Assembly (NCBI GenBank): GCA_016200675.1
Contig: JACQEH010000025.1
Coordinates: 1 to 44,022 of the forward strand
Length of the DNA: 44,022 nt
Direction of reading: 5' to 3'
DNA from: Chloroflexota bacterium
GTDB lineage: Bacteria; Chloroflexota; Limnocylindria; Limnocylindrales; CSP1-4
Part shown: positions 17,221 through 26,793 of the stretch, in pieces
Position numbering within the stretch: position 1 is the stretch's first letter
Layout: every line of letters starts with the position of its first letter
The notes under the pieces: model-generated
Database searches by the model: none
Seen by the model: the letters and a program-made list of their open reading frames with translations, nothing else
Told to the model about the DNA's origin: nothing
Made by a program: the position numbers and the translations under genes

Positions 17221-18723
17221 TCAGCGGTCCTCCAGGCGGACGTAGGCGTGGAGGCCGTGCATGCCGCCCTCCCGGCCGAACCCTGATTCCTTGTAGCCGC
17301 CGAAGGGCGACGTCGGATCGAAGCGGTTGAAGGTGTTGGCCCAGACCACCCCGGCCCGCATCCTGCGGGCCATCGAGAGGATCCGGCTGCCCTTCTCCGT
17401 CCAGATGCCGGCCGACAGTCCGTAGGGGGTGTTGTTGGCCTTCTCGACGGCCTCCTCGGGCGTCCGGAAGGTCAGCACGGAGAGGACCGGCCCGAAGATC
17501 TCCTCCCTGGCGATGCGATGGCTCTGGGCGACGCCGGTGAAGAGGGTCGGCCGGAAGAACCAGCCGCGCTCGGGCAGGTCGCAGGCCGGCTGGTAGAGCT
17601 CGGCCCCCTCGGCCACACCGGCCGCCACGAGCTCGGTGATCTTGTCGAGCTGCTGGCGGGAGTTGATGGCCCCGACGTCGGTGTTCTTGTCGAGCGGATC
17701 GCCGACGCGAATCGTGGCGAGCCGGTCCTTGAGCTTCTCGACGAGCGGCCCGACGATGGATTCCTGGGCGAGCAGCCGAGACCCCGCGCAGCAGACCTCG
17801 CCCTGGTTGAAGTAGATGCCGTTGACGATGCCCTCCACCGCCTGGTCGAGCGCGGCGTCCTCGAAGACGATGTTGGCGGCCTTGCCGCCGAGCTCGAGGG
17901 TGATCGCCTTGTCGGTCCCGGCGATCGCCCGCTGGATCAGCTTGCCGACGCCCGTCGAGCCGGTGAAGGCCACCTTGTCGACGCCGGGGCTCGAGACAAG
18001 GTGCATCCCGATCTCGGCCGGCCCCGGGACGATGTTGACGACGCCCGGGGGCAGGTCGGCCTGGCGGCAGACATCCGCGAACAGGAGGGCGGTCAAGGGT
18101 GTCGTGGACGCCGGCTTCAGGACGACCGTGTTGCCGGCCGCGAGCGCCGGCGCGATCTTCCAGCTCAGCATCAGGAGCGGGAAGTTCCAGGGGATGACCT
18201 GGGCCGCGACGCCCAGCGGCCGGGCGTTCCGGCCCGGGAAGGCGTATTCGAGCTTGTCCGCCCAGCCCGCGTAGTACCAGAAGTGGGCCGCGGCCAGAGG
18301 CACGTCGACGTCGCGGGACTCCTTGATCGGCTTGCCCGAATCCATCGTCTCGAGGACGGCGAACTCCCGGCTGCGCTCCTGCAGGATCCGGGCGATCCGG
18401 AAGAGGTACTTGGCCCGTTCGCGGCCGGGGAGGTTCCCCCAGCTGCGCCGCTGGGCCCGGCGAGCGGCCGCGATCGCCCGATCGACGTCGGCCGTCGTTG
18501 CCCGCGAGACGTCGGCGAGCTTCTCCTCCGTCGCCGGGTTGATCGTCTGGAAGGCGCCCTTGTCCGAGGCCTCGACCTCGCGGCCGTTGATGAACAGCCC
18601 GTAGCGCTCCCGGAGGCCGACGATGTCCCGCGATTCCGGCGCCGGCGCGTACTCCCAGGGGATGGCCTGGCCGTCGCCGAGCCCCCAGCCGGCTGGCGCA
18701 CGATCCCCGCTCCACGGGCGCAT
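17221..18723 (-). CDS. NAD(P)-dependent aldehyde dehydrogenase (full length, ~500 aa)
   Basis: ALDH motifs are VIPWNFPLLMLSWKIAPALAAGNTVVLKPA, FTGSTGVGK, LELGGKA (general base), FNQGEVCCAGSR (catalytic Cys) and EEIFGPV. The start is ATG 18723, or ATG 18753/18756. Confidence 0.9.
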   Translation of the reverse strand: MRPWSGDRAPAGWGLGDGQAIPWEYAPAPESRDIVGLRERYGLFINGREVEASDKGAFQTINPATEEKLADVSRATTADVDRAIAAARRAQRRSWGNLPGRERAKYLFRIARILQERSREFAVLETMDSGKPIKESRDVDVPLAAAHFWYYAGWADKLEYAFPGRNARPLGVAAQVIPWNFPLLMLSWKIAPALAAGNTVVLKPASTTPLTALLFADVCRQADLPPGVVNIVPGPAEIGMHLVSSPGVDKVAFTGSTGVGKLIQRAIAGTDKAITLELGGKAANIVFEDAALDQAVEGIVNGIYFNQGEVCCAGSRLLAQESIVGPLVEKLKDRLATIRVGDPLDKNTDVGAINSRQQLDKITELVAAGVAEGAELYQPACDLPERGWFFRPTLFTGVAQSHRIAREEIFGPVLSVLTFRTPEEAVEKANNTPYGLSAGIWTEKGSRILSMARRMRAGVVWANTFNRFDPTSPFGGYKESGFGREGGMHGLHAYVRLEDR

Positions 18724-18834
18724 CCTGGTGGCGTCGCTCGTCACGCGAGGCATCATACCCGGGATGCCACGCCGCTCCGCCCTCCCCTCCCCTGGCGGCC
18801 CGCCCGCCGGGACGCTGCCCATGCGGGTGGGAGA

Positions 18835-19511: not shown

Positions 19512-21242
19512 GTGACCACCGCGCCGGCGGTCTCACCCAGCCATCGGAGCCCACCCGTGACCGAGCCGACCCCACGCTGGCAGCAACGCTATCGCGCACC
19601 GGTCGTCGGCTTCCCGACCTGGTCGCGGCACGCGCCCGATCGCCTCGTCTACGTCTCGTCGGAGAGCGGCATCTACCAGCTCCACAGCTGGGACGTGGCG
19701 AGCGGGGAGCAGCACCAGATCACCCACGAACCGGTCGGCCTGGTGTCCGGCGAGGTCAGCGCCGACGGCGAGTGGGTCCTCTGGCACCGCGACAGGACCG
19801 GCGACGAGTCGGGCTCGTGGATGGCCGCGCCGTTCGTCGGCGGGTCCCCGGAGCCCTTCGCCGAGGGCCTCCCGATCGGCTGGGACGAGGGCCTGGCACC
19901 AGGCCTGGAACGGACCGTGGCGGCCATCTCCGATCGTGACGGCTTCGCCATCCTCGTCACGGAGCGCGACGGCACGACCCGGTGTATCCGCCAGAGCCGG
20001 GACTCGATCCTCCTCGGCGGCAGCAACGCCATGGTCCGGGGCGGGACCGAGCTGGCGGGCCTGAGCGCGGACGAGCGACTCGTCGCGGTCGAGCACGGCG
20101 AGCACGGCGACCTCATCCACTCCGCGCTGCGCATCCTCGACGCCCGGACCGGCGCCATCGTCGCCGACCTCGAGGACGCCGGCAGGGAGCTCGTCGCCTT
20201 CGCCTGGTCGCCGGTCGCCGGCGACGAGCGGCTCGCAATCGGGCACGAGCGCCGGGGCGAGCGGGCCCCGGCCATCTGGGAGCCGCGGACCGGGGAGGTC
20301 ACGGACCTGGCCCTGCCGTGGGATCACCTGACCGAGGTGACGGACTGGTGGCCCGACGGCTCGGCGCTGCTGCTCTCCGAGCTCGACGCCGGCCGTCATC
20401 GGCTCCATCGCTACGACCGTGACGAGGCACTCCTCACGGCGGGCCCCGCGCCCACCGGCCGACCGTTCATCCCATGGTCGTTCCCGAACCCGCACGGGCA
20501 GGTGGTCACAGGCTGGCGGATCGAGCCGGGCGGCAGCGGGCCCTTTCCCACGCTCTTCCACATCCACGGTGGCCCGACGTCGGTGGACCTCGACCGCTGG
20601 GCACCGGACCTCCAGGCCTACGTGGACGCCGGCTTCCAGGTCGTCCTCGTGAACTACCGGGGCTCGATCGGGTTCGGCGCCGCCTGGCGCGACACGCTCA
20701 TCGGGAACATCGGCTGGCCGGAGGTGGAGGACATCCTCGCTGGGGTCGACGACCTCGTGGCGAGGGGACTCGCTGACCCGAACCGGCTTGCCATCGCCGG
20801 CTGGTCATGGGGCGGCTATCTGACCCTCCTGATGCACGGCATGCATCCCGATCGGTTCATCACCGGCGTTGCCGGCGTGCCGGTCGGCGACTACGCCCTC
20901 GGCTACGAGGACCTCTCGCCGCTCCTCCAGGCCTACGACCGCGCACTCCTCGGCGGGACGCCGGCCGAGGTGCCGGAGCTCATGGCCGAACGCTCCCCCA
21001 TCAGCTACGTCGACAACGTCAAGGCCCCGATCCTCTTCCTCGCCGGCGAGGCGGATTCACGCTGTCCGATCCGCCAGGTCCTCGCCTATACCGACCGGCT
21101 GGCCGCTCGCCACCACCCCCACGAGCTGTACCTCTTCCCAACGGGTCACGCGCCCTTCCAGATCGACGAGCGAATCCGCCAGACGGCGATCGTGCTGGAC
21201 TTCCTCGCTCGAACGGTGCCGGGAATCCGCGTCCCGGGCTGA
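19512..21242 (+). CDS. S9-family serine peptidase (prolyl oligopeptidase / acylaminoacyl-peptidase type, beta-propeller plus alpha/beta hydrolase)
   Basis: The C-terminal hydrolase domain has the nucleophile elbow IAGWSWGGYL, the Asp in FLAGEADSRC and the His in FPTGHAPF. The N-terminal half has propeller-like repeats. An alternative GTG start is at 19557. Confidence 0.85.
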   Translation: MTTAPAVSPSHRSPPVTEPTPRWQQRYRAPVVGFPTWSRHAPDRLVYVSSESGIYQLHSWDVASGEQHQITHEPVGLVSGEVSADGEWVLWHRDRTGDESGSWMAAPFVGGSPEPFAEGLPIGWDEGLAPGLERTVAAISDRDGFAILVTERDGTTRCIRQSRDSILLGGSNAMVRGGTELAGLSADERLVAVEHGEHGDLIHSALRILDARTGAIVADLEDAGRELVAFAWSPVAGDERLAIGHERRGERAPAIWEPRTGEVTDLALPWDHLTEVTDWWPDGSALLLSELDAGRHRLHRYDRDEALLTAGPAPTGRPFIPWSFPNPHGQVVTGWRIEPGGSGPFPTLFHIHGGPTSVDLDRWAPDLQAYVDAGFQVVLVNYRGSIGFGAAWRDTLIGNIGWPEVEDILAGVDDLVARGLADPNRLAIAGWSWGGYLTLLMHGMHPDRFITGVAGVPVGDYALGYEDLSPLLQAYDRALLGGTPAEVPELMAERSPISYVDNVKAPILFLAGEADSRCPIRQVLAYTDRLAARHHPHELYLFPTGHAPFQIDERIRQTAIVLDFLARTVPGIRVPG

Positions 21243-21256
21243 CGAGGGAGAACGTC

Positions 21257-21769
21257 ATGGGTCGACTCATTCGCACGCTCCTCGGTCTCACGATCCTCGC
21301 CTCGATCGCCTCGGCCATCGCCGCCGCGATGGTCAGGGAGCGGATGGTCTCGAAGGGCGAGCCCATCGACGACGAGATCGACCTCGTCGCAATCTTCAGG
21401 GGCCTCGATTTCCGGAGCCGGGCGATGGCCCTCCGGCGCGCCCGGGTGACCTCGTGGTACGGCGGGGCCACGCTCGACCTCCGGGAGGCGACGATCCACC
21501 CCGAGGGAGCGAGCATCGAGCTGCGGGCCGCGTTCGGCGGCCTCCGCCTCGTCGTGCCCGATGCGTGGCGCGTCGAGCAGCACCTCACGGCGATCTTCGG
21601 CGGCGTCGGGGACACTCGGGACGTGGGCGACACCGGGCTGCCCGGCGGCCCGCTCCTCACGATCGAAGGCTTCGCCCTTTTCGGTGGCGTCGGGATCGTC
21701 AGCGACGCCCCGGACCTCGACGACGAAGTCGAGGCCTCCGCCGAGCTGCCGCCGCTCGCTACGGCCTGA
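21257..21769 (+). CDS. membrane-anchored LiaF/DUF2154-like (cell-wall-active-antibiotic response type) domain protein
   Basis: RBS GAGGGAG precedes ATG 21257. One N-terminal TM helix is present (LLGLTILASIASAIAAAMV). The repeated beta-strand pattern WYGGATLDLREA..IELRAAFGGLRLVVPDAWRV..TAIFGGVGD..GFALFGGVGIV follows, and it is typical of LiaF C-terminal domains. Confidence 0.6.
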   Translation: MGRLIRTLLGLTILASIASAIAAAMVRERMVSKGEPIDDEIDLVAIFRGLDFRSRAMALRRARVTSWYGGATLDLREATIHPEGASIELRAAFGGLRLVVPDAWRVEQHLTAIFGGVGDTRDVGDTGLPGGPLLTIEGFALFGGVGIVSDAPDLDDEVEASAELPPLATA

Positions 21770-22703
21770 GGGTCGACCCGAGCGGGATGCCGTCGACGAG
21801 GTAGATCCCGGTCGGGCCGGAGACGACGATGTCGTAGGTCCGTCCGCCGGTATATGGGAGGAGGTCGGCTGCCCGAACGACCGAGCCGCCCACGCGGTCG
21901 CCGGGACGGACGTCGCCGACGCGGCGACCGTCCGCGAGCGGATGACCGGGTGAGGCGGTGACGGTGCGGCCATCGGCCAGGAGCAGGCGGACCACCATGT
22001 GGCTCGCCGGGGCCGGCATCGAGCCGAGCGCGATCACCGTCGCGGCGAGGCGGCGTCCGTCGGCATCGAGCGTCCAGACCGGGTCGCCGATGCGGAGCTC
22101 CTCGACGGCGATCCGTCCCCCCGGCCCGTCGATCCGCGTGCCGCGGGCCAGGCAGATGGGGCAGTTCGGTGCGCCGGCCGCGGCCTGCTGCTCGACCGTG
22201 ATCACGCCCGAGGTCGTGATCCTGCCTGCGGTCCTGGTGCCCTGCGCGCCCCCGGAGACGGGCTGGGCGAGGTAGTCGAAGCGGTAGGTGTCGTTGCCGA
22301 TGGGGTTGAGGGCGATCGCCCGGAGCGCCTTCCAGGCTTGATACACGGCGAGCTCCTGCTCGTCCGAGAACGACGTCACCGCCTCGAGGCCCAGCCGGAC
22401 GACGATCGACCGGAACGCCCCGGCGTCGGCCTGGACTTCCGGCCAGCGTGTCTTCGCGCTCTCGACCTCATCGGCGCGCTGGATCGGGTAGAAGTCGGGA
22501 TCGCAGTACCAGAGCGGACCGTAGGTCGCGACGAGCTGCAGCTTGAGCTCCGGCGGCGAGAGCGCCGGTCCCGGCGTGGCCGTGGAACCAGGCGCCTGCG
22601 ACGGCGCGGGGCTGCCGGCGTCGGGCGTCGCGAGGAGGGAACAGCCGGCGACCGCAATGATCGCCAGCAGCAGGCCCGCCAGATTTCGTGCGTCCCGGTG
22701 CAT
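21759..22703 (-). CDS. lipoprotein with an unknown N-terminal domain and a C-terminal Hint (Hedgehog/intein-like) domain
   Basis: ATG 22703 gives MHRDARNLAGLLLAIIAVAG|CSLL, a lipobox signal. The C-terminal Hint blocks are CLARGTRIDGPGGRIAVEELRIGDPV, TASPGHPL and TYDIVVSGPTGIYLVDG. Confidence 0.75.
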   Translation of the reverse strand: MHRDARNLAGLLLAIIAVAGCSLLATPDAGSPAPSQAPGSTATPGPALSPPELKLQLVATYGPLWYCDPDFYPIQRADEVESAKTRWPEVQADAGAFRSIVVRLGLEAVTSFSDEQELAVYQAWKALRAIALNPIGNDTYRFDYLAQPVSGGAQGTRTAGRITTSGVITVEQQAAAGAPNCPICLARGTRIDGPGGRIAVEELRIGDPVWTLDADGRRLAATVIALGSMPAPASHMVVRLLLADGRTVTASPGHPLADGRRVGDVRPGDRVGGSVVRAADLLPYTGGRTYDIVVSGPTGIYLVDGIPLGSTLRP

Positions 22704-22851
22704 GGGTGGCAGACGCCCTGATTGTCCTTCGGGTTCCGACGACGTGACAGTCGTCGACGTCGCGTCGTAACAGGATCCGACGCCGGGCGTCCCCCATAGA
22801 CCCAACCGCCCGGAAGTTCCGGCGGATGCGAGGTTACCGGAGGGTCCACCA

Positions 22852-23235
22852 ATGGAGCTCGGGCGGATCGGCATCTGGCTGCTCGCGGTCGGGTTCGCGA
22901 TCGTCGCGGCGGGCTACCTCCTCATGGTCCTGGCGATCCCCAACGGCAATCTCGTGGCCGGGATCGGCATCGTCGTCATCGCCGCGGGAGCCGCGGCGCT
23001 ATGCGTCGCACCTCGACCACCATTCACGGGTAGGATCGCCCGGCTCGGGTTGGGAACGCTTGCCGCGGGAGCGGCCTGCCTTGAGGTGGCCAGCGTCATC
23101 GCGGCCGGGATGACCTTCGATCCGCTCGAGAGCATGCCGGTGGTCGTGTTCGGCCTGATCGGCCTGGCCCTCACGCCGATCGGCGTGCTCTTGACGCTGT
23201 TCGCCCTGGTCCGGCGGTTCGCTAGTCGATCGTGA
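22852..23235 (+). CDS. hypothetical small integral membrane protein (about 4 TM)
   Basis: RBS GGAGGG lies 6 nt upstream of ATG 22852. The 127-aa Gly/Ala/Ile/Leu-rich hydrophobic product belongs to no family I recognise. Its 3' end overlaps the convergent deoC by 14 nt. Confidence 0.5.
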   Translation: MELGRIGIWLLAVGFAIVAAGYLLMVLAIPNGNLVAGIGIVVIAAGAAALCVAPRPPFTGRIARLGLGTLAAGAACLEVASVIAAGMTFDPLESMPVVVFGLIGLALTPIGVLLTLFALVRRFASRS

Positions 23236-24205
23236 AGTTGTCGGGGCCCTGGTAGCGGCCGGTCCGCTCCTTCTCGATCTGCATCAGGACGTCGTTGAGG
23301 AGGCTCGAGGCGCCGAAGCGGAAGCGCTCGGGCGTCATCCAGCGCGGCCCGAGGGTCTCGTACAGGACGACGAGGTACTGGATCGCCTCCTTGGCCGTCC
23401 GGATCCCGCCGGCCGGCTTCATCCCGACCGCCCGGCCGGTCGCCTTCTCGAAGTCACGGATGGCCTCGAGCATCACGAGGGTCACGGGCAGGGTGGCCGC
23501 CGGCGTGACCTTGCCGGTCGAGGTCTTGATGAAGTCGGCGCCGGCGGCCATCGCCAGGATCGACGCCCGTCGCACGTTGTCATAGGTCTCGAGCTCGCCG
23601 GTCTCGAGGATGACCTTGAGATGGGACTCGCCGCAGGCGTCCTTGATCTCGACGATCTCGTCGAAGACGGCCCCGTAGTCGCCGCCCAGGAAGGCTCCGC
23701 GGTCGATGACCATGTCGACCTCGTCGGCGCCGGCGGCGACGGCGGCCCGGACCTCGGCCACCTTGATGTCACGGAAGGTCTGGCCCGAGGGAAAGCCCGT
23801 CGCTACGCTGGCGACCCGGACGGTCGAGCCCTTCAGGGCGTCCTTGGCGTCGGCGATCAGTGCCGGGTAGACGCAGATCGCCGCGACCGAGGGGATCGTG
23901 GGGTCGCCCGGCTGCGGGTGAATCGCCTTCTGACAGAGGGCCCGGATCTTGCCCGCGGTGTCCTTTCCCTCGAGCGTGGTGAGATCCATCATCCGGATCG
24001 CGAGGTCGAGGGCCCAGAGCTTCGAGGCCTTCTTGATGGAACGCTTCTTCAGGCCGTCGACGCGCTGCTCGACCCCGACCTGGTCGACGGCCGTCAGCCG
24101 CCCGAGGACCGAGCCGAGAGGCCCCGGCCGGCCGCCAGCCCACGCGCGAACCAGCTCGCTGGCGCGCTCGCGGGTGAGGGTGTCGGGGCGGTGGGCCGTG
24201 GCCAT
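23222..24205 (-). CDS. deoC: deoxyribose-phosphate aldolase (long, actinobacterial-type form)
   Basis: Motifs AAICVYPALI, VATGFPSGQ, ADEVDMVIDRG, LKVILETGEL and ADFIKTSTGK (Schiff-base Lys) are present. The product is 327 aa. Confidence 0.92.
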   Translation of the reverse strand: MATAHRPDTLTRERASELVRAWAGGRPGPLGSVLGRLTAVDQVGVEQRVDGLKKRSIKKASKLWALDLAIRMMDLTTLEGKDTAGKIRALCQKAIHPQPGDPTIPSVAAICVYPALIADAKDALKGSTVRVASVATGFPSGQTFRDIKVAEVRAAVAAGADEVDMVIDRGAFLGGDYGAVFDEIVEIKDACGESHLKVILETGELETYDNVRRASILAMAAGADFIKTSTGKVTPAATLPVTLVMLEAIRDFEKATGRAVGMKPAGGIRTAKEAIQYLVVLYETLGPRWMTPERFRFGASSLLNDVLMQIEKERTGRYQGPDNFTID

Positions 24206-24630: not shown

Positions 24631-26793
24631 CTAGTTGTGGTCCCCGTGGCGGGTCCGCGGCTTCGGCGGCAGGCGGCGCTTCCCCTCGACGAGGAAGTGG
24701 CGGAACCAATCCCGGACCTGGACCAGGTTCTCCGACCGTCGGAACGGCGTCCCGGAGCGGGTCAGCTCGTGGGACTCACCGACCACGCGCATGAGGCGGA
24801 CCGGTCGCCGGTGGCGGCGCAGGACGGCGAAGAGTGCCTCGGCCTGCCCGAGCGTCGTGCGCAGGTCCTGCTCGGCGTGCTGGATGAGGAGCGGGGTCCG
24901 GATGGCCGCCGCGTAGGTGATCGGCGACTGCCGGCGGAAGAGATCCGGATCGTCCCAGGGAAACGCCCCGAACTCGTACAGCGGCCAGTCCGTGCCCGAG
25001 AGGTCCCCCGTCAGCATCAGCATCGTCAGGTCGTTGACCGAGCGGCAGGTGATGGCGGCCGCAAAGCGCTGGTCGTGGCCCACGATCCAGCTCGTGAGGT
25101 AGCCGCCGTACGAACCGCCGGTGACACCCAGGCGGGCCGGGTCGGCCAGGCCGTCGGCAACGAGGGCGTCGACACCGGCCAGGACGTCGCGGGTCGGCCC
25201 CTCGCCCCAATCGGCGATGTTGGCCTCGTTGAAGGTCCGCCCGTACCCCTCCGAGCCGCGGGGGTTGCAGTAGAAGACGGACATGCCGGCGCCGGCCAGG
25301 ACCTGGAACTCCCAGAACGGCGTCCAGCCATACAGGGTGTGGGGTCCACCGTGGATCTCGACGACGGTCGGTTGCGGGCTGGGGCCCGCGGCGATGAGCC
25401 AGCCCTGGATCTCGTGCCCGTCCACGGTCACGGACCGCTCCACCGCGGGCCGCAGCTCGATCTCGTCGAGGACGGCCTCGTTGAGGGCCGTCAGCGGCGA
25501 GAAGTGGAGGTCCCCTGCGGCCGATCGGCGCGCTCCCCCGGCAGCCAGCGTCGCGACGTAGAGGTCCGGCATCTGCGTGTCGGTCGATCGGATGGCGACG
25601 ATGTCGATGCCCCGCGGTCCGCGATCGCGGAGGTCGAAGGCCGAGAGGTAGTGATGGCCTGTCGTCAGGCGTCGAAGGCCGCCATCGGCCACGTCGAGGC
25701 GCCACAGCTCCATCGCCCCGCGATGAGGCGCCAGGAAGAGCACGCCGGCCCCGCCCTCGATCGGACGGAGGTGCGGCGCTTCGCCGGCCGTGACGTCGCT
25801 GTTCATCGTCGAGGCCGGCATGACGTCCTGGCCGTCGGTGAGGGTGCGCCCGCCCCGGGCTTCCGAACCGTCGGCAAAGAAGCGCCAGATGCCGGCCCCG
25901 TAGTAGGCGTGGGGAGCGGTCCCGCCGAGAGCCACGATGGACGCGTCGTCGAGCCAGGCCGGGCCGAAGAAGAGCCCGTCCGGGTGGTCGGCGACCGGTG
26001 TCGTCCGCCCGGACGCAACCTCGACGCAGAGGATGCGACTGGACGACTTCAGGTCGCGATCGCGCGTCCCGGACGTGGAGAAGGCGATGCGCCGCCCATC
26101 GGGCGACCAGGCGAGGTCGCCGACGCCGCCGGGGACATCGGTCAGACGCCGTGCGCCGCCGCTGGCGGCATCCACCAGCCACACCTGCGGGATCTGGTTG
26201 GCGATGATCCCGGGCCCGTTGAGCTCGTACCCGAGGCGATCGAAGTACCAATAGTCGCTGGGCAGCGGCGCGCCGGGCATTGGCTCCGGAAGCCGCCGCC
26301 GGAGGCGATCGTCGGTCGCCCGATCCGGCCCGCGGGAGGTCGAGAGGACGGCCAGCTGCGTCCCGTCGGGCGACCACTCGAGGGCCGTCACGCCGCGCGG
26401 CAGGTCCGACAGCCGGCGGGCCTCACCGGGCCGGTCGAGGGGCAGGAGATACACCTGGACCCGGTCCTCGCGGTCCTTGGCGGCCGTCGGCTCCTCCTCG
26501 ACGTGGAGGCGCCGATTGCTCAGGAAGGCAAGGGTCCGACCGTCAGGCGAGATTCGCGGCGAACTCTCGTGGCGACCGGCCGTGGTGAGGCGCCGAGGGG
26601 CCTCCCCCGGGATCGGGCGGCCGTCCTCGAGGCGCACCGACCAGAGCGCCGAGTGGTAGGCGTCGTGGGCGCCGGCGACCTCCTGGAGGACGAAGACGGC
26701 GAGGTCGCCGTCGGCGGCGAGGCGCGGATCCGTCGGGATGCGGAGGCGCGGCTGGTCCTCAGGGCGAGGCGGGCGACGGGCAGGTGCGATCAC
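24631..26793 (-). CDS. S9-family serine peptidase with an N-terminal TolB-like beta-propeller (acylaminoacyl-peptidase type)
   Basis: A 720-aa product with a GTG start. Propeller repeats are present (SPRISPDGRTLAF, WSPDGTQLAV, WSPDGRRIAF). The catalytic residues are Ser in VTGGSYGGYL, Asp in IQHAEQDLRT and His in VVGESHEL. Confidence 0.9.
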   Translation of the reverse strand: MIAPARRPPRPEDQPRLRIPTDPRLAADGDLAVFVLQEVAGAHDAYHSALWSVRLEDGRPIPGEAPRRLTTAGRHESSPRISPDGRTLAFLSNRRLHVEEEPTAAKDREDRVQVYLLPLDRPGEARRLSDLPRGVTALEWSPDGTQLAVLSTSRGPDRATDDRLRRRLPEPMPGAPLPSDYWYFDRLGYELNGPGIIANQIPQVWLVDAASGGARRLTDVPGGVGDLAWSPDGRRIAFSTSGTRDRDLKSSSRILCVEVASGRTTPVADHPDGLFFGPAWLDDASIVALGGTAPHAYYGAGIWRFFADGSEARGGRTLTDGQDVMPASTMNSDVTAGEAPHLRPIEGGAGVLFLAPHRGAMELWRLDVADGGLRRLTTGHHYLSAFDLRDRGPRGIDIVAIRSTDTQMPDLYVATLAAGGARRSAAGDLHFSPLTALNEAVLDEIELRPAVERSVTVDGHEIQGWLIAAGPSPQPTVVEIHGGPHTLYGWTPFWEFQVLAGAGMSVFYCNPRGSEGYGRTFNEANIADWGEGPTRDVLAGVDALVADGLADPARLGVTGGSYGGYLTSWIVGHDQRFAAAITCRSVNDLTMLMLTGDLSGTDWPLYEFGAFPWDDPDLFRRQSPITYAAAIRTPLLIQHAEQDLRTTLGQAEALFAVLRRHRRPVRLMRVVGESHELTRSGTPFRRSENLVQVRDWFRHFLVEGKRRLPPKPRTRHGDHN

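Follow-up and report, generated by a model that had tools for sequence, protein, structure and literature searches.

A candidate self-removing Hint pro-domain in an envelope lipoprotein family of uncultured Limnocylindria (Chloroflexota)

Among secreted proteins that carry an autoprocessing Hint domain at their C-terminus, only Hedgehog is well understood. There, work of 2025 showed a branched intermediate on residue C143, the equivalent of the C+1 residue of inteins (PMC12054796). B-type bacterial intein-like (BIL) domains have the intein motifs except the C-terminal one and undergo N-terminal cleavage, BIL domains being described in hypervariable regions of non-conserved secreted bacterial proteins (PMC7765530), while the group collected by Burglin in 2008 (MXAN_6253, STIAU_1829, plu1731 and others) consists of secreted proteins with a divergent Hint-like domain at the C-terminus (PMC2362128). 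BIL domains and the Burglin group are functionally obscure. Here we consider a gene for a 314-residue lipoprotein precursor with a C-terminal Hint domain, found in a stretch of 44,022 nucleotides of a Chloroflexota bacterium (contig JACQEH010000025.1 of assembly GCA_016200675.1; the whole of this stretch is called the window below). An earlier note, made from the letters alone, had seen in it a Hedgehog-like lipoprotein; the open reading frame that it reported is present and lies on the minus strand, which the note had not given, and the peptides that it quoted are all there (LLAIIAVAG↓C, NCPI↓CLARGTRIDGPGGRIAVEELRIGDPV, TVTASPGHPL, TYDIVVSGPTGIYLVDG and the tail IPLGSTLRP before the stop). 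By analogy, the protein would work like Hedgehog/Hog and like the B-type BIL domains, through N-terminal processing without splicing. Conservation and comparison with its relatives lead us to propose, with moderate confidence, that the Hint domain is a self-removing C-terminal pro-domain, the departure of which would leave a lipid-anchored domain ending in ...CPI.

The gene belongs to a sizeable family. More than 2,482 relatives were found among 5.8 billion proteins; the best 120 of them all have about 300-320 residues, 60-86% identity and the same architecture, which excludes a chance reading frame and establishes a real gene. Relatives that lack the Hint bear most directly on its role. Upstream of the Hint, members of the family share an exported domain, the N-domain (residues 50-183 of the window protein), and at least 19 representatives of this domain have no Hint; all of them end exactly at C-P-x, with the residue that precedes the first one of the Hint (Cys1, here Cys184). 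They end at true stop codons (TAA or TGA), and the genes that come next are unrelated (at locus L003 an Fpg/MutM gene begins 4 nt after the stop), and tblastn found no Hint remnant in any Hint-less locus. Selenocysteine insertion or read-through at Cys1, which the TGA of the first case had brought to mind, was rejected: other stops are TAA, unrelated genes follow and no frame holds a Hint-like sequence. At locus L084 a relative of high GC content ends in ..NCPI-TGA and is convergent with the gene of an S9 peptidase that is 62% identical, over its full length, to the neighbour in the window, so that this is the orthologous locus without a Hint. In a rough neighbour-joining tree of N-domains, drawn without support values, Hint-less forms branch among Hint-fused ones at some dozen points, so that one and the same junction has served more than once.

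The residue at the junction itself follows the same pattern. Over the 173 complete family members on which the residue counts of the Hint and its junction are based, position -1 is Ile in 170, while it is I, V, L, K, R, T or N in the Hint-less proteins, which fits a residue constrained by the Hint active site only as long as the Hint is present. Furthermore, the Hint joins the natural last residue of the N-domain (Ile183) without any linker. Because the Hint-less proteins end there, because the junction recurs and because the -1 residue is freed when the Hint is missing, the functional cargo would appear to be the N-domain, with residue 183 as its free end, just as N-terminal cleavage would give it. 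The earlier note had placed such a cleavage at NCPI↓C, and the natural Hint-less relatives, ending precisely at the -1 residue, lend this placement new support.

That the C-terminal module is a Hint domain is secure. Pfam Hint_2 (PF13403) is matched with 31.8-33.2 bits (31.8 for the window protein) for a gathering cut-off of 28.4, and 29 of 29 diverse members match it, the match spanning only the N-terminal part of the model (profile positions ~1-81 of 147); among the same 29 members, matches below threshold are to Vint (11), Hedgehog Hint (7), Intein_splicing (3) and PT-HINT (2). A profile of the family Hint, compared with the sequences of the PDB, finds the gp41-1 intein (E=9e-6, profile positions 2-124 on chain residues 5-125) and, more weakly, the Clostridium thermocellum BIL domain and Hedgehog. 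The full-length AlphaFold2 (AF2) model has a mean predicted local distance difference test (pLDDT) score of 80, and Foldseek aligns it, always with probability 1.00, to 3ifj (template modelling score, TM, 0.72), to the BIL domain 2lwy (0.77), to 6qaz (0.73) and to Hedgehog 1at0 (0.60); for the Mtu RecA mini-intein the score on the target is 0.72-0.77, and for gp41-1 the score is 0.73. Against the Hog Hint, represented by a small alignment made from sequences in Burglin's supplementary file, hhalign gives a probability of 95.8%, with Cys1 and the block-B Thr/Ser and His in register. It is the concurrence of a Hint_2 score above cut-off, of mini-intein and BIL folds and of the gp41-1 and Hog profile matches that makes the assignment secure. 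The earlier note had recognised the module by its block pattern and proposed comparison with Hint models and folds; both comparisons, once run, proved significant. A special affinity to Hedgehog over inteins was considered and dropped, as inteins score better in sequence and in fold.

Class 1 mini-inteins such as gp41-1 and Mtu RecA, together with the A-type BIL domain of C. thermocellum (2lwy), thus provide the best profile and fold matches; in these inteins blocks A, B, F and G are collinear with those of the family, and a hydroxyl nucleophile stands at +1. By contrast, the family lacks the penultimate His, the terminal Asn, a real C-extein and an endonuclease, its Hint is not inserted in a host protein, and its distribution is not sporadic; the Hint-less relatives also lack the C-terminal tail. 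A degenerate or selfish intein remnant, or a PT-HINT toxin cassette deprived of its C-extein or toxin, could be imagined from the mini-intein matches and from the weak PT-HINT matches of 2 of the 29 members, yet it is effectively refuted: the gene is single-copy, at a conserved syntenic locus in some 79 species-level genomes, under strong purifying conservation, with a tail fixed at 2-3 residues; it lacks a homing endonuclease and the Asn, and no toxin or immunity gene lies downstream of it. The earlier note had already set the protein apart from polymorphic toxins for want of toxin or immunity neighbours. This holds: PF07591 (PT-HINT) is weak where it appears at all, nothing follows the Hint, the adjoining genes are LiaF-like, S9 peptidase and DeoC, and no toxin, immunity, secretion or transposase gene is found around the Hint gene in the window or in the related loci.

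With Hedgehog/Hog proteins the family shares a signal peptide followed by a lipidated N-terminal Cys of the mature protein (predicted here), a cargo followed by a C-terminal Hint, Cys1 and T/S-x-x-H in register, the lack of a terminal Asn, and, where block G ends, a small residue, a Ser and a nucleophile in succession (A-S-C in Hedgehog, G/A-S-T here). It differs in having neither a sterol recognition nor an adduct recognition region, in using Thr instead of Cys, in a cargo unrelated to Hedge, and in lipidation predicted to follow the bacterial lipoprotein pathway and not Hhat; moreover, the Pfam Hedgehog Hint model (PF01079) gives only 12.1 bits for a cut-off of 29.7, with 7 of 29 members below threshold and a best E of 2.5e-4. 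Of the Hedgehog/Hog logic advanced in the earlier note, N-terminal processing without splicing remains the probable course, and gains a threonine at the +1 site; the protein is not a member of the Hog family, with PF01079 below its cut-off and no adduct-recognition region. B-type BIL domains resemble the family in their motif pattern, according to the published description, and in Hint_2, the sole Pfam model to exceed its gathering score; but the family is single-copy, syntenic and highly conserved. A-type BIL domains have a conserved His-Asn (PMC7765530) where the family has G/A-S. Finally, the Burglin proteins combine, as here, a signal peptide and a Hint-like domain at the C-terminus with a stretch upstream of the latter that holds two conserved Cys, so that the type of architecture is already known. 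The chemistry proposed for the family is not of a new kind. Motifs, tails and taxa set them apart: their junctions read NSC↓MA or YGC↓I instead of CPI↓C, their block G ends in ..ILVGD.. instead of ..ILL[AG]ST, their C-terminal tails are longer, and they come from Proteobacteria and Myxococcota, not Chloroflexota. Bacterial secreted proteins with a C-terminal Hint-like domain are also reported by Dassa and Pietrokovski.

The residues expected to activate the scissile bond are fully kept, as the earlier note had proposed to check for Cys1 and the S-x-x-H of block B: Cys184 (Cys1), Ser251 and His254 of block B and Asp291 of block F are each found in 173/173 members. Block F also has Y301 in 173/173 and T289 in 171/173. 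This bears on the idea that the Hint does not cleave at all and serves as a stable binding or structural module, the mature protein being an intact two-domain lipoprotein. The high overall conservation of the Hint would suit such a module, and so would a Hint_2 match limited to the N-terminal half of the model. We nevertheless hold it to be improbable, since Cys1, S-x-x-H and the block-F Asp, the very residues that an N-S acyl shift requires, never vary, the Hint follows without a linker on the natural last residue of a domain that is also encoded by itself, and the -1 Ile is constrained only in the presence of the Hint.

At the other end of the Hint, the position of the terminal Asn of inteins (Ser310) is S in 168 and T in 5 of the 173 members, never Asn, Gln or Asp, and that of the penultimate His (Gly309) is G, A, R or K; the domain ends with G309-S310 where inteins carry His-Asn. 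Splicing is thereby excluded, in agreement with the earlier note. The latter had also stated that there is neither a +1 nucleophile nor a C-extein, which is wrong in detail: Thr311 (T in 171, S in 2) aligns with the intein +1 residue. Its alignment with Hedgehog C143, of low per-residue confidence, makes the protein more Hedgehog-like, not less. Nor does the frame stop nine residues after block G, as had been written, since LVDGIPLGS is the last Hint strand and the stop comes four residues past the position of the last intein residue. The tail after the +1 position has 2-3 residues in 146 of 173 members, three in the window protein. In the alignment with gp41-1, the family Y-W-A-N-G-I-L falls on F-Y-A-N-D-I-L; the continuation of gp41-1 after ANDIL, which we take to be T-H-N↓S, would place G/A-S-T on His-Asn↓(+1). 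Two profile alignments in global mode, of low per-residue confidence, set the family S-T on the S-C of Hedgehog, where block G reads ..V-A-S-C-Y-A.. in the sequences of the Hog alignment.

A plausible course of maturation can be laid out on this basis. The precursor would be exported by Sec, lose its signal peptide and be lipidated at Cys21, after which a flexible tether would hold a 134-residue domain in the envelope. The N-domain would fold, its C-terminal tail being stapled to the core by a Cys67-Cys181 disulfide. Cys184, aided by Ser251/His254 and Asp291, would then perform an N-S acyl shift and convert the Ile183-Cys184 bond into a thioester, and the acyl group would probably pass to Thr311 as a branched (oxy)ester, on the model of the +1 residue of inteins and of C143 in Hedgehog. 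With Ser in place of the intein Asn, the C-terminus of the Hint itself could not be cleaved and no splicing could take place; hydrolysis is the most likely way for the ester to be resolved. Two pieces would result, a membrane-anchored domain ending in Cys-Pro-Ile-COOH, the very form that Hint-less relatives encode, and a soluble Hint of 131 residues. As the lipid anchor sits on the cargo, it is the Hint that would be released. The earlier interpretation, which had the surface-anchored upstream domain set free, is largely right once corrected on this point and on Thr311, the transfer to a nucleophile that it allowed being no more than a possibility.

The last step could also be taken by something other than water. 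In a transfer of the Hedgehog type, the (thio)ester would be resolved by a nucleophile of the envelope, a lipid hydroxyl or amine or the amine of a peptidoglycan stem peptide, and the C-terminus of the lipoprotein would be attached as well, giving a dual anchor or a membrane-to-wall tether. The general plan is that of Hedgehog (signal peptide, lipidation of an N-terminal Cys, cargo, Asn-less Hint, nucleophile at the C143 equivalent; PMC12054796), the Hint is conserved above its cargo, which suggests for example the positioning of a nucleophile, and in some members tandem PG_binding_1 repeats place the N-domain at the cell wall. Yet the protein has no sterol or adduct recognition region, only two to three residues follow Thr311, no conserved candidate partner gene adjoins the 79 related loci, and repeated losses of the Hint have left the protein with a plain carboxyl end at one and the same residue, so that an adduct is at least dispensable. 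We regard such a transfer as unlikely, if worth keeping in view, and its stronger form as rather doubtful: a prokaryotic counterpart of Hedgehog maturation, in which the Cys1 thioester and the Thr311 ester would ligate the protein's own C-terminus to an envelope nucleophile without a dedicated transferase. Were it true, the protein would be anchored at both ends or would form a tether from membrane to wall, and the conservation of the Hint would reflect recognition of the nucleophile.

Several points weigh against the self-removing pro-domain. Hint-less ends that coincide with the junction are also what a clean domain boundary would produce, even if the lack of a linker and the repeated recurrence argue for more than a mere boundary. 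The Hint is more conserved than the cargo (mean pairwise identity among distant members of 50% for the Hint and 37% for the N-domain, the Hint being ahead in 97% of pairs), which is unexpected of a disposable part and hints at an added role, which might be to bind a partner or a nucleophile or to act once released. Nor is a beta-branched Ile at -1 the fastest-cleaving residue in general intein practice. Lastly, the equation of Thr311 with Hedgehog C143 depends on alignment columns of low confidence and on the reading of the gp41-1 C-terminus given above. The family nonetheless provides a clean bacterial system, small, single-copy and strongly conserved, that keeps the full N-terminal catalytic set and a hydroxyl nucleophile at the Hedgehog C143 position, with natural "pre-cleaved" relatives to define the expected product. 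With it, one can test directly what the +1/C143-equivalent residue does in non-splicing Hints, and it bears on whether processing of the Hog type is older than eukaryotes. If hydrolysis is all there is, it will be a tidy and unsurprising addition to the Hint superfamily.

Cysteines are distributed in a telling manner. In each of the 19 Hint-less domains there are two and no more, equivalent to C67 and C181; almost every Hint-fused protein adds Cys1 to this pair, its Hint being otherwise free of Cys. Proteins with tandem N-domains have a Cys pair of their own in each copy. Since Hint-less domains keep these two residues and each tandem copy has its own pair, Cys67-Cys181 would be the default pairing and Cys1 would be free: the exported domain probably has a structural Cys67-Cys181 disulfide, with Cys184 as the single free thiol. 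There is another way to see Cys181. The spacing C(-3)-P-x-C(1) is invariant (173/173) and identical to the "redox-trap" arrangement of Cys(-3) and Cys1 described in an engineered Ssp DnaE intein and in the native Pab MoaA intein (PMC3922620). In this exported protein, a Cys181-Cys184 disulfide might therefore trap the precursor, cleavage awaiting reduction or thiol-disulfide exchange with Cys67. Here, in contrast to the trapped inteins, Cys(-3) lies in the cargo domain and is kept without the Hint, probably paired with Cys67; Cys181 and Pro182 are equally conserved in Hint-less relatives devoid of Cys1, in which only Cys67 can be the partner, and each tandem copy again has its own pair. A redox gate accordingly seems very improbable to us.

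The cargo is a domain without recognisable kin. What the earlier note took for an unassignable region of about 170 residues resolves into a linker of 28 residues (22-49), weakly conserved, and a compact domain of 134 residues (50-183); that no family can be assigned to it remains correct. The AF2 model of the N-domain, built on a diverse alignment, is a compact alpha+beta structure with five helices followed by a four-stranded sheet. No Pfam family matches it in 44 diverse members, NCBIfam run on the full protein gives no match to it, its profile finds no relative among the PDB sequences, and Foldseek finds no match to its fold in the PDB (best E=0.1, TM<0.3) or among the viral structures of BFVD (best E 0.06). 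A kinship with glyoxalase/bleomycin-resistance proteins (phmmer E=0.013) was rejected as noise, the match straddling the domain junction (residues 125-197). Searched exhaustively on its own against 1.84 billion representatives, the domain was found in 352 clusters (50% identity). Two features of it are invariant, the motif W-Y-C67-D-P-D-x-x-P and, at the C-terminus, C181-P182; the C and D of the LWY-C67-DPDFYP motif do not change over the 44 diverse sequences. In two representatives, P0187 (Hint-fused, 457 aa) and P0265 (Hint-less, 349 aa; L003, 1192-2241), two PG_binding_1 repeats (E ~1e-33) precede the N-domain and stand where the lipobox would be, from which it follows that the domain works in the cell envelope, near the wall; these fusions point to a peptidoglycan-associated role. 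Tandem N-domains occur in P0141, P0163, P0175 and P0178, which are Hint-fused, and in P0206, P0232, P0248 and P0269, which are Hint-less; the first copy is the more divergent and has its second Cys in the beta2-beta3 loop instead of a C-P-x tail. The family offers a first biochemical handle on an abundant envelope domain of soil and groundwater Chloroflexota that has neither a Pfam family nor a known fold relative.

Attachment of this domain to the membrane is predicted from its N-terminus. The lipobox AVAG↓C corresponds to residues 17-21, and Cys21, kept in 118 of 120 relatives, would be the lipidated N-terminus of the mature protein; the lipoprotein signal read in the earlier note is borne out, and with it, given the Hint_2 match, the whole architecture of a cargo with a C-terminal Hint on a lipoprotein. 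Among the representatives, 38 of 59 Hint-fused and 12 of 21 Hint-less ones have a lipobox, and most N-domain members have other signal or anchor sequences or lipoboxes.

Members of the family occur in single copy, in conserved synteny and almost exclusively in uncultured Limnocylindria. Named relatives come from metagenome-assembled genomes (MAGs) of Chloroflexota or "Candidatus Limnocylindrales", where they are labelled "Hint domain-containing protein", "HintN protein" or "hypothetical protein". One genome per species was scanned, with a query alignment that biases recovery towards Hint-fused Limnocylindria, and 79 loci were obtained, essentially one per genome, nearly all in Limnocylindria-type Chloroflexota; all the hosts are uncultured MAGs. 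The N-domain itself reaches beyond Chloroflexota, since a Hint-less N-domain lipoprotein, P0277 (locus L086, GCA_035689585.1), is found in a MAG annotated as Candidatus Dormibacteraeota. A literature search on the family found no publication devoted to it. The gene deoC lies directly upstream on the same strand in about 35 of the 79 loci, and a convergent S9 peptidase gene lies downstream in about 35 of them, an aldehyde dehydrogenase gene following further downstream on the strand of the Hint gene. This is a vertically inherited locus of housekeeping type, unlike the hypervariable contexts of BIL domains (PMC7765530). DeoC and the S9 peptidase were considered as functional partners and set aside: their synteny is strong, but they look like housekeeping neighbours within one bacterial class.

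Table 1. Positions in the window of the parts of the Hint lipoprotein gene and of neighbouring genes (CDS, coding sequence; ORF, open reading frame; pTM, predicted TM score)
Feature	Positions	Strand	Basis or remark
Whole CDS (lipoprotein precursor: signal peptide, linker, N-domain, Hint)	21759..22703	-	314 aa + stop
Signal peptide and lipobox, MHRDARNLAGLLLAIIAVAG↓C, residues 1-21	22641..22703	-	Sequence
Pro/Ser/Ala-rich low-complexity tether, residues 22-49	22557..22640	-	Sequence; pLDDT <50 in full-length model
N-domain, residues 50-183, ends ...N-C181-P-I183	22155..22556	-	AF2 pLDDT 94, pTM 0.86
LWY-C67-DPDFYP motif of N-domain, invariant	22485..22514	-	C67, D68, D70 each 120/120
Junction C181-P182-I183↓C184, predicted scissile bond Ile183↓Cys184	22152..22163	-	CPI↓C in 170/173
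Hint domain proper (blocks A, B, F, G), residues 184-310	21774..22154	-	Pfam Hint_2, Foldseek, profile vs PDB, hhalign
Block B, T-A-S251-P-G-H254-P-L (S-x-x-H, equivalent of intein/Hedgehog T-x-x-H)	21936..21959	-	173/173
Block F, T289-Y-D291-IVVSGPTGIY301	21801..21839	-	Aligns with gp41-1 block F
Thr311 (+1/Hedgehog C143 equivalent) and L-R-P tail	21762..21773	-	gp41-1 and Hog alignments
TAG stop of the Hint lipoprotein gene	21759-21761	-	
LiaF-like_C gene	21254-21769	+	Between Hint gene and S9 peptidase
S9 (prolyl-oligopeptidase family) peptidases, two paralogues	19512-21242; 24631-26793	+; -	~35% identical
Aldehyde dehydrogenase	17221-18750	-	
DeoC	23222-24205	-	327 aa, ~68-residue N-terminal extension before Pfam DeoC match
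ORF of 127 aa, several hydrophobic segments	22852-23235	+	In 517-bp deoC-Hint gap, opposite strand, no Pfam match

The two S9 paralogues flank the pair formed by deoC and the Hint gene, and both positions are kept across many Limnocylindria loci; the convergent one is kept even beside the Hint-less ortholog L084. The LiaF-like_C gene is convergent with the Hint gene, their 3' ends overlapping by 11 bp (21759-21769), and adjoins it in only about 9-13 of the 79 related loci. Aldehyde dehydrogenase and DeoC are encoded on the same strand, with the lipoprotein, LiaF-like, S9 peptidase and YhhN genes between them. Near the Hint-less N-domain genes of three loci, within about 2 kb, there is a gene for a sigma factor of the extracytoplasmic function (ECF) type, with Sigma70_r2/r4_2 domains, in each case adjoining an unannotated gene of about 250-264 aa (L084, 7592-8916; L086, 5493-6748; L087, 719-1998). 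The 127-aa reading frame between deoC and the Hint gene is kept in two of the 79 related loci (L006 and L010) and may be lineage-specific or spurious. No tRNA and no Rfam family were found in the whole 44-kb window. With a GC content of 71%, the window is rich in long reading frames that overlap real genes on the opposite strand or in other frames, for example 21999-22721 (+) and 22376-22852 (-); a frame of 240 aa antisense to the Hint gene is of this GC-driven kind.

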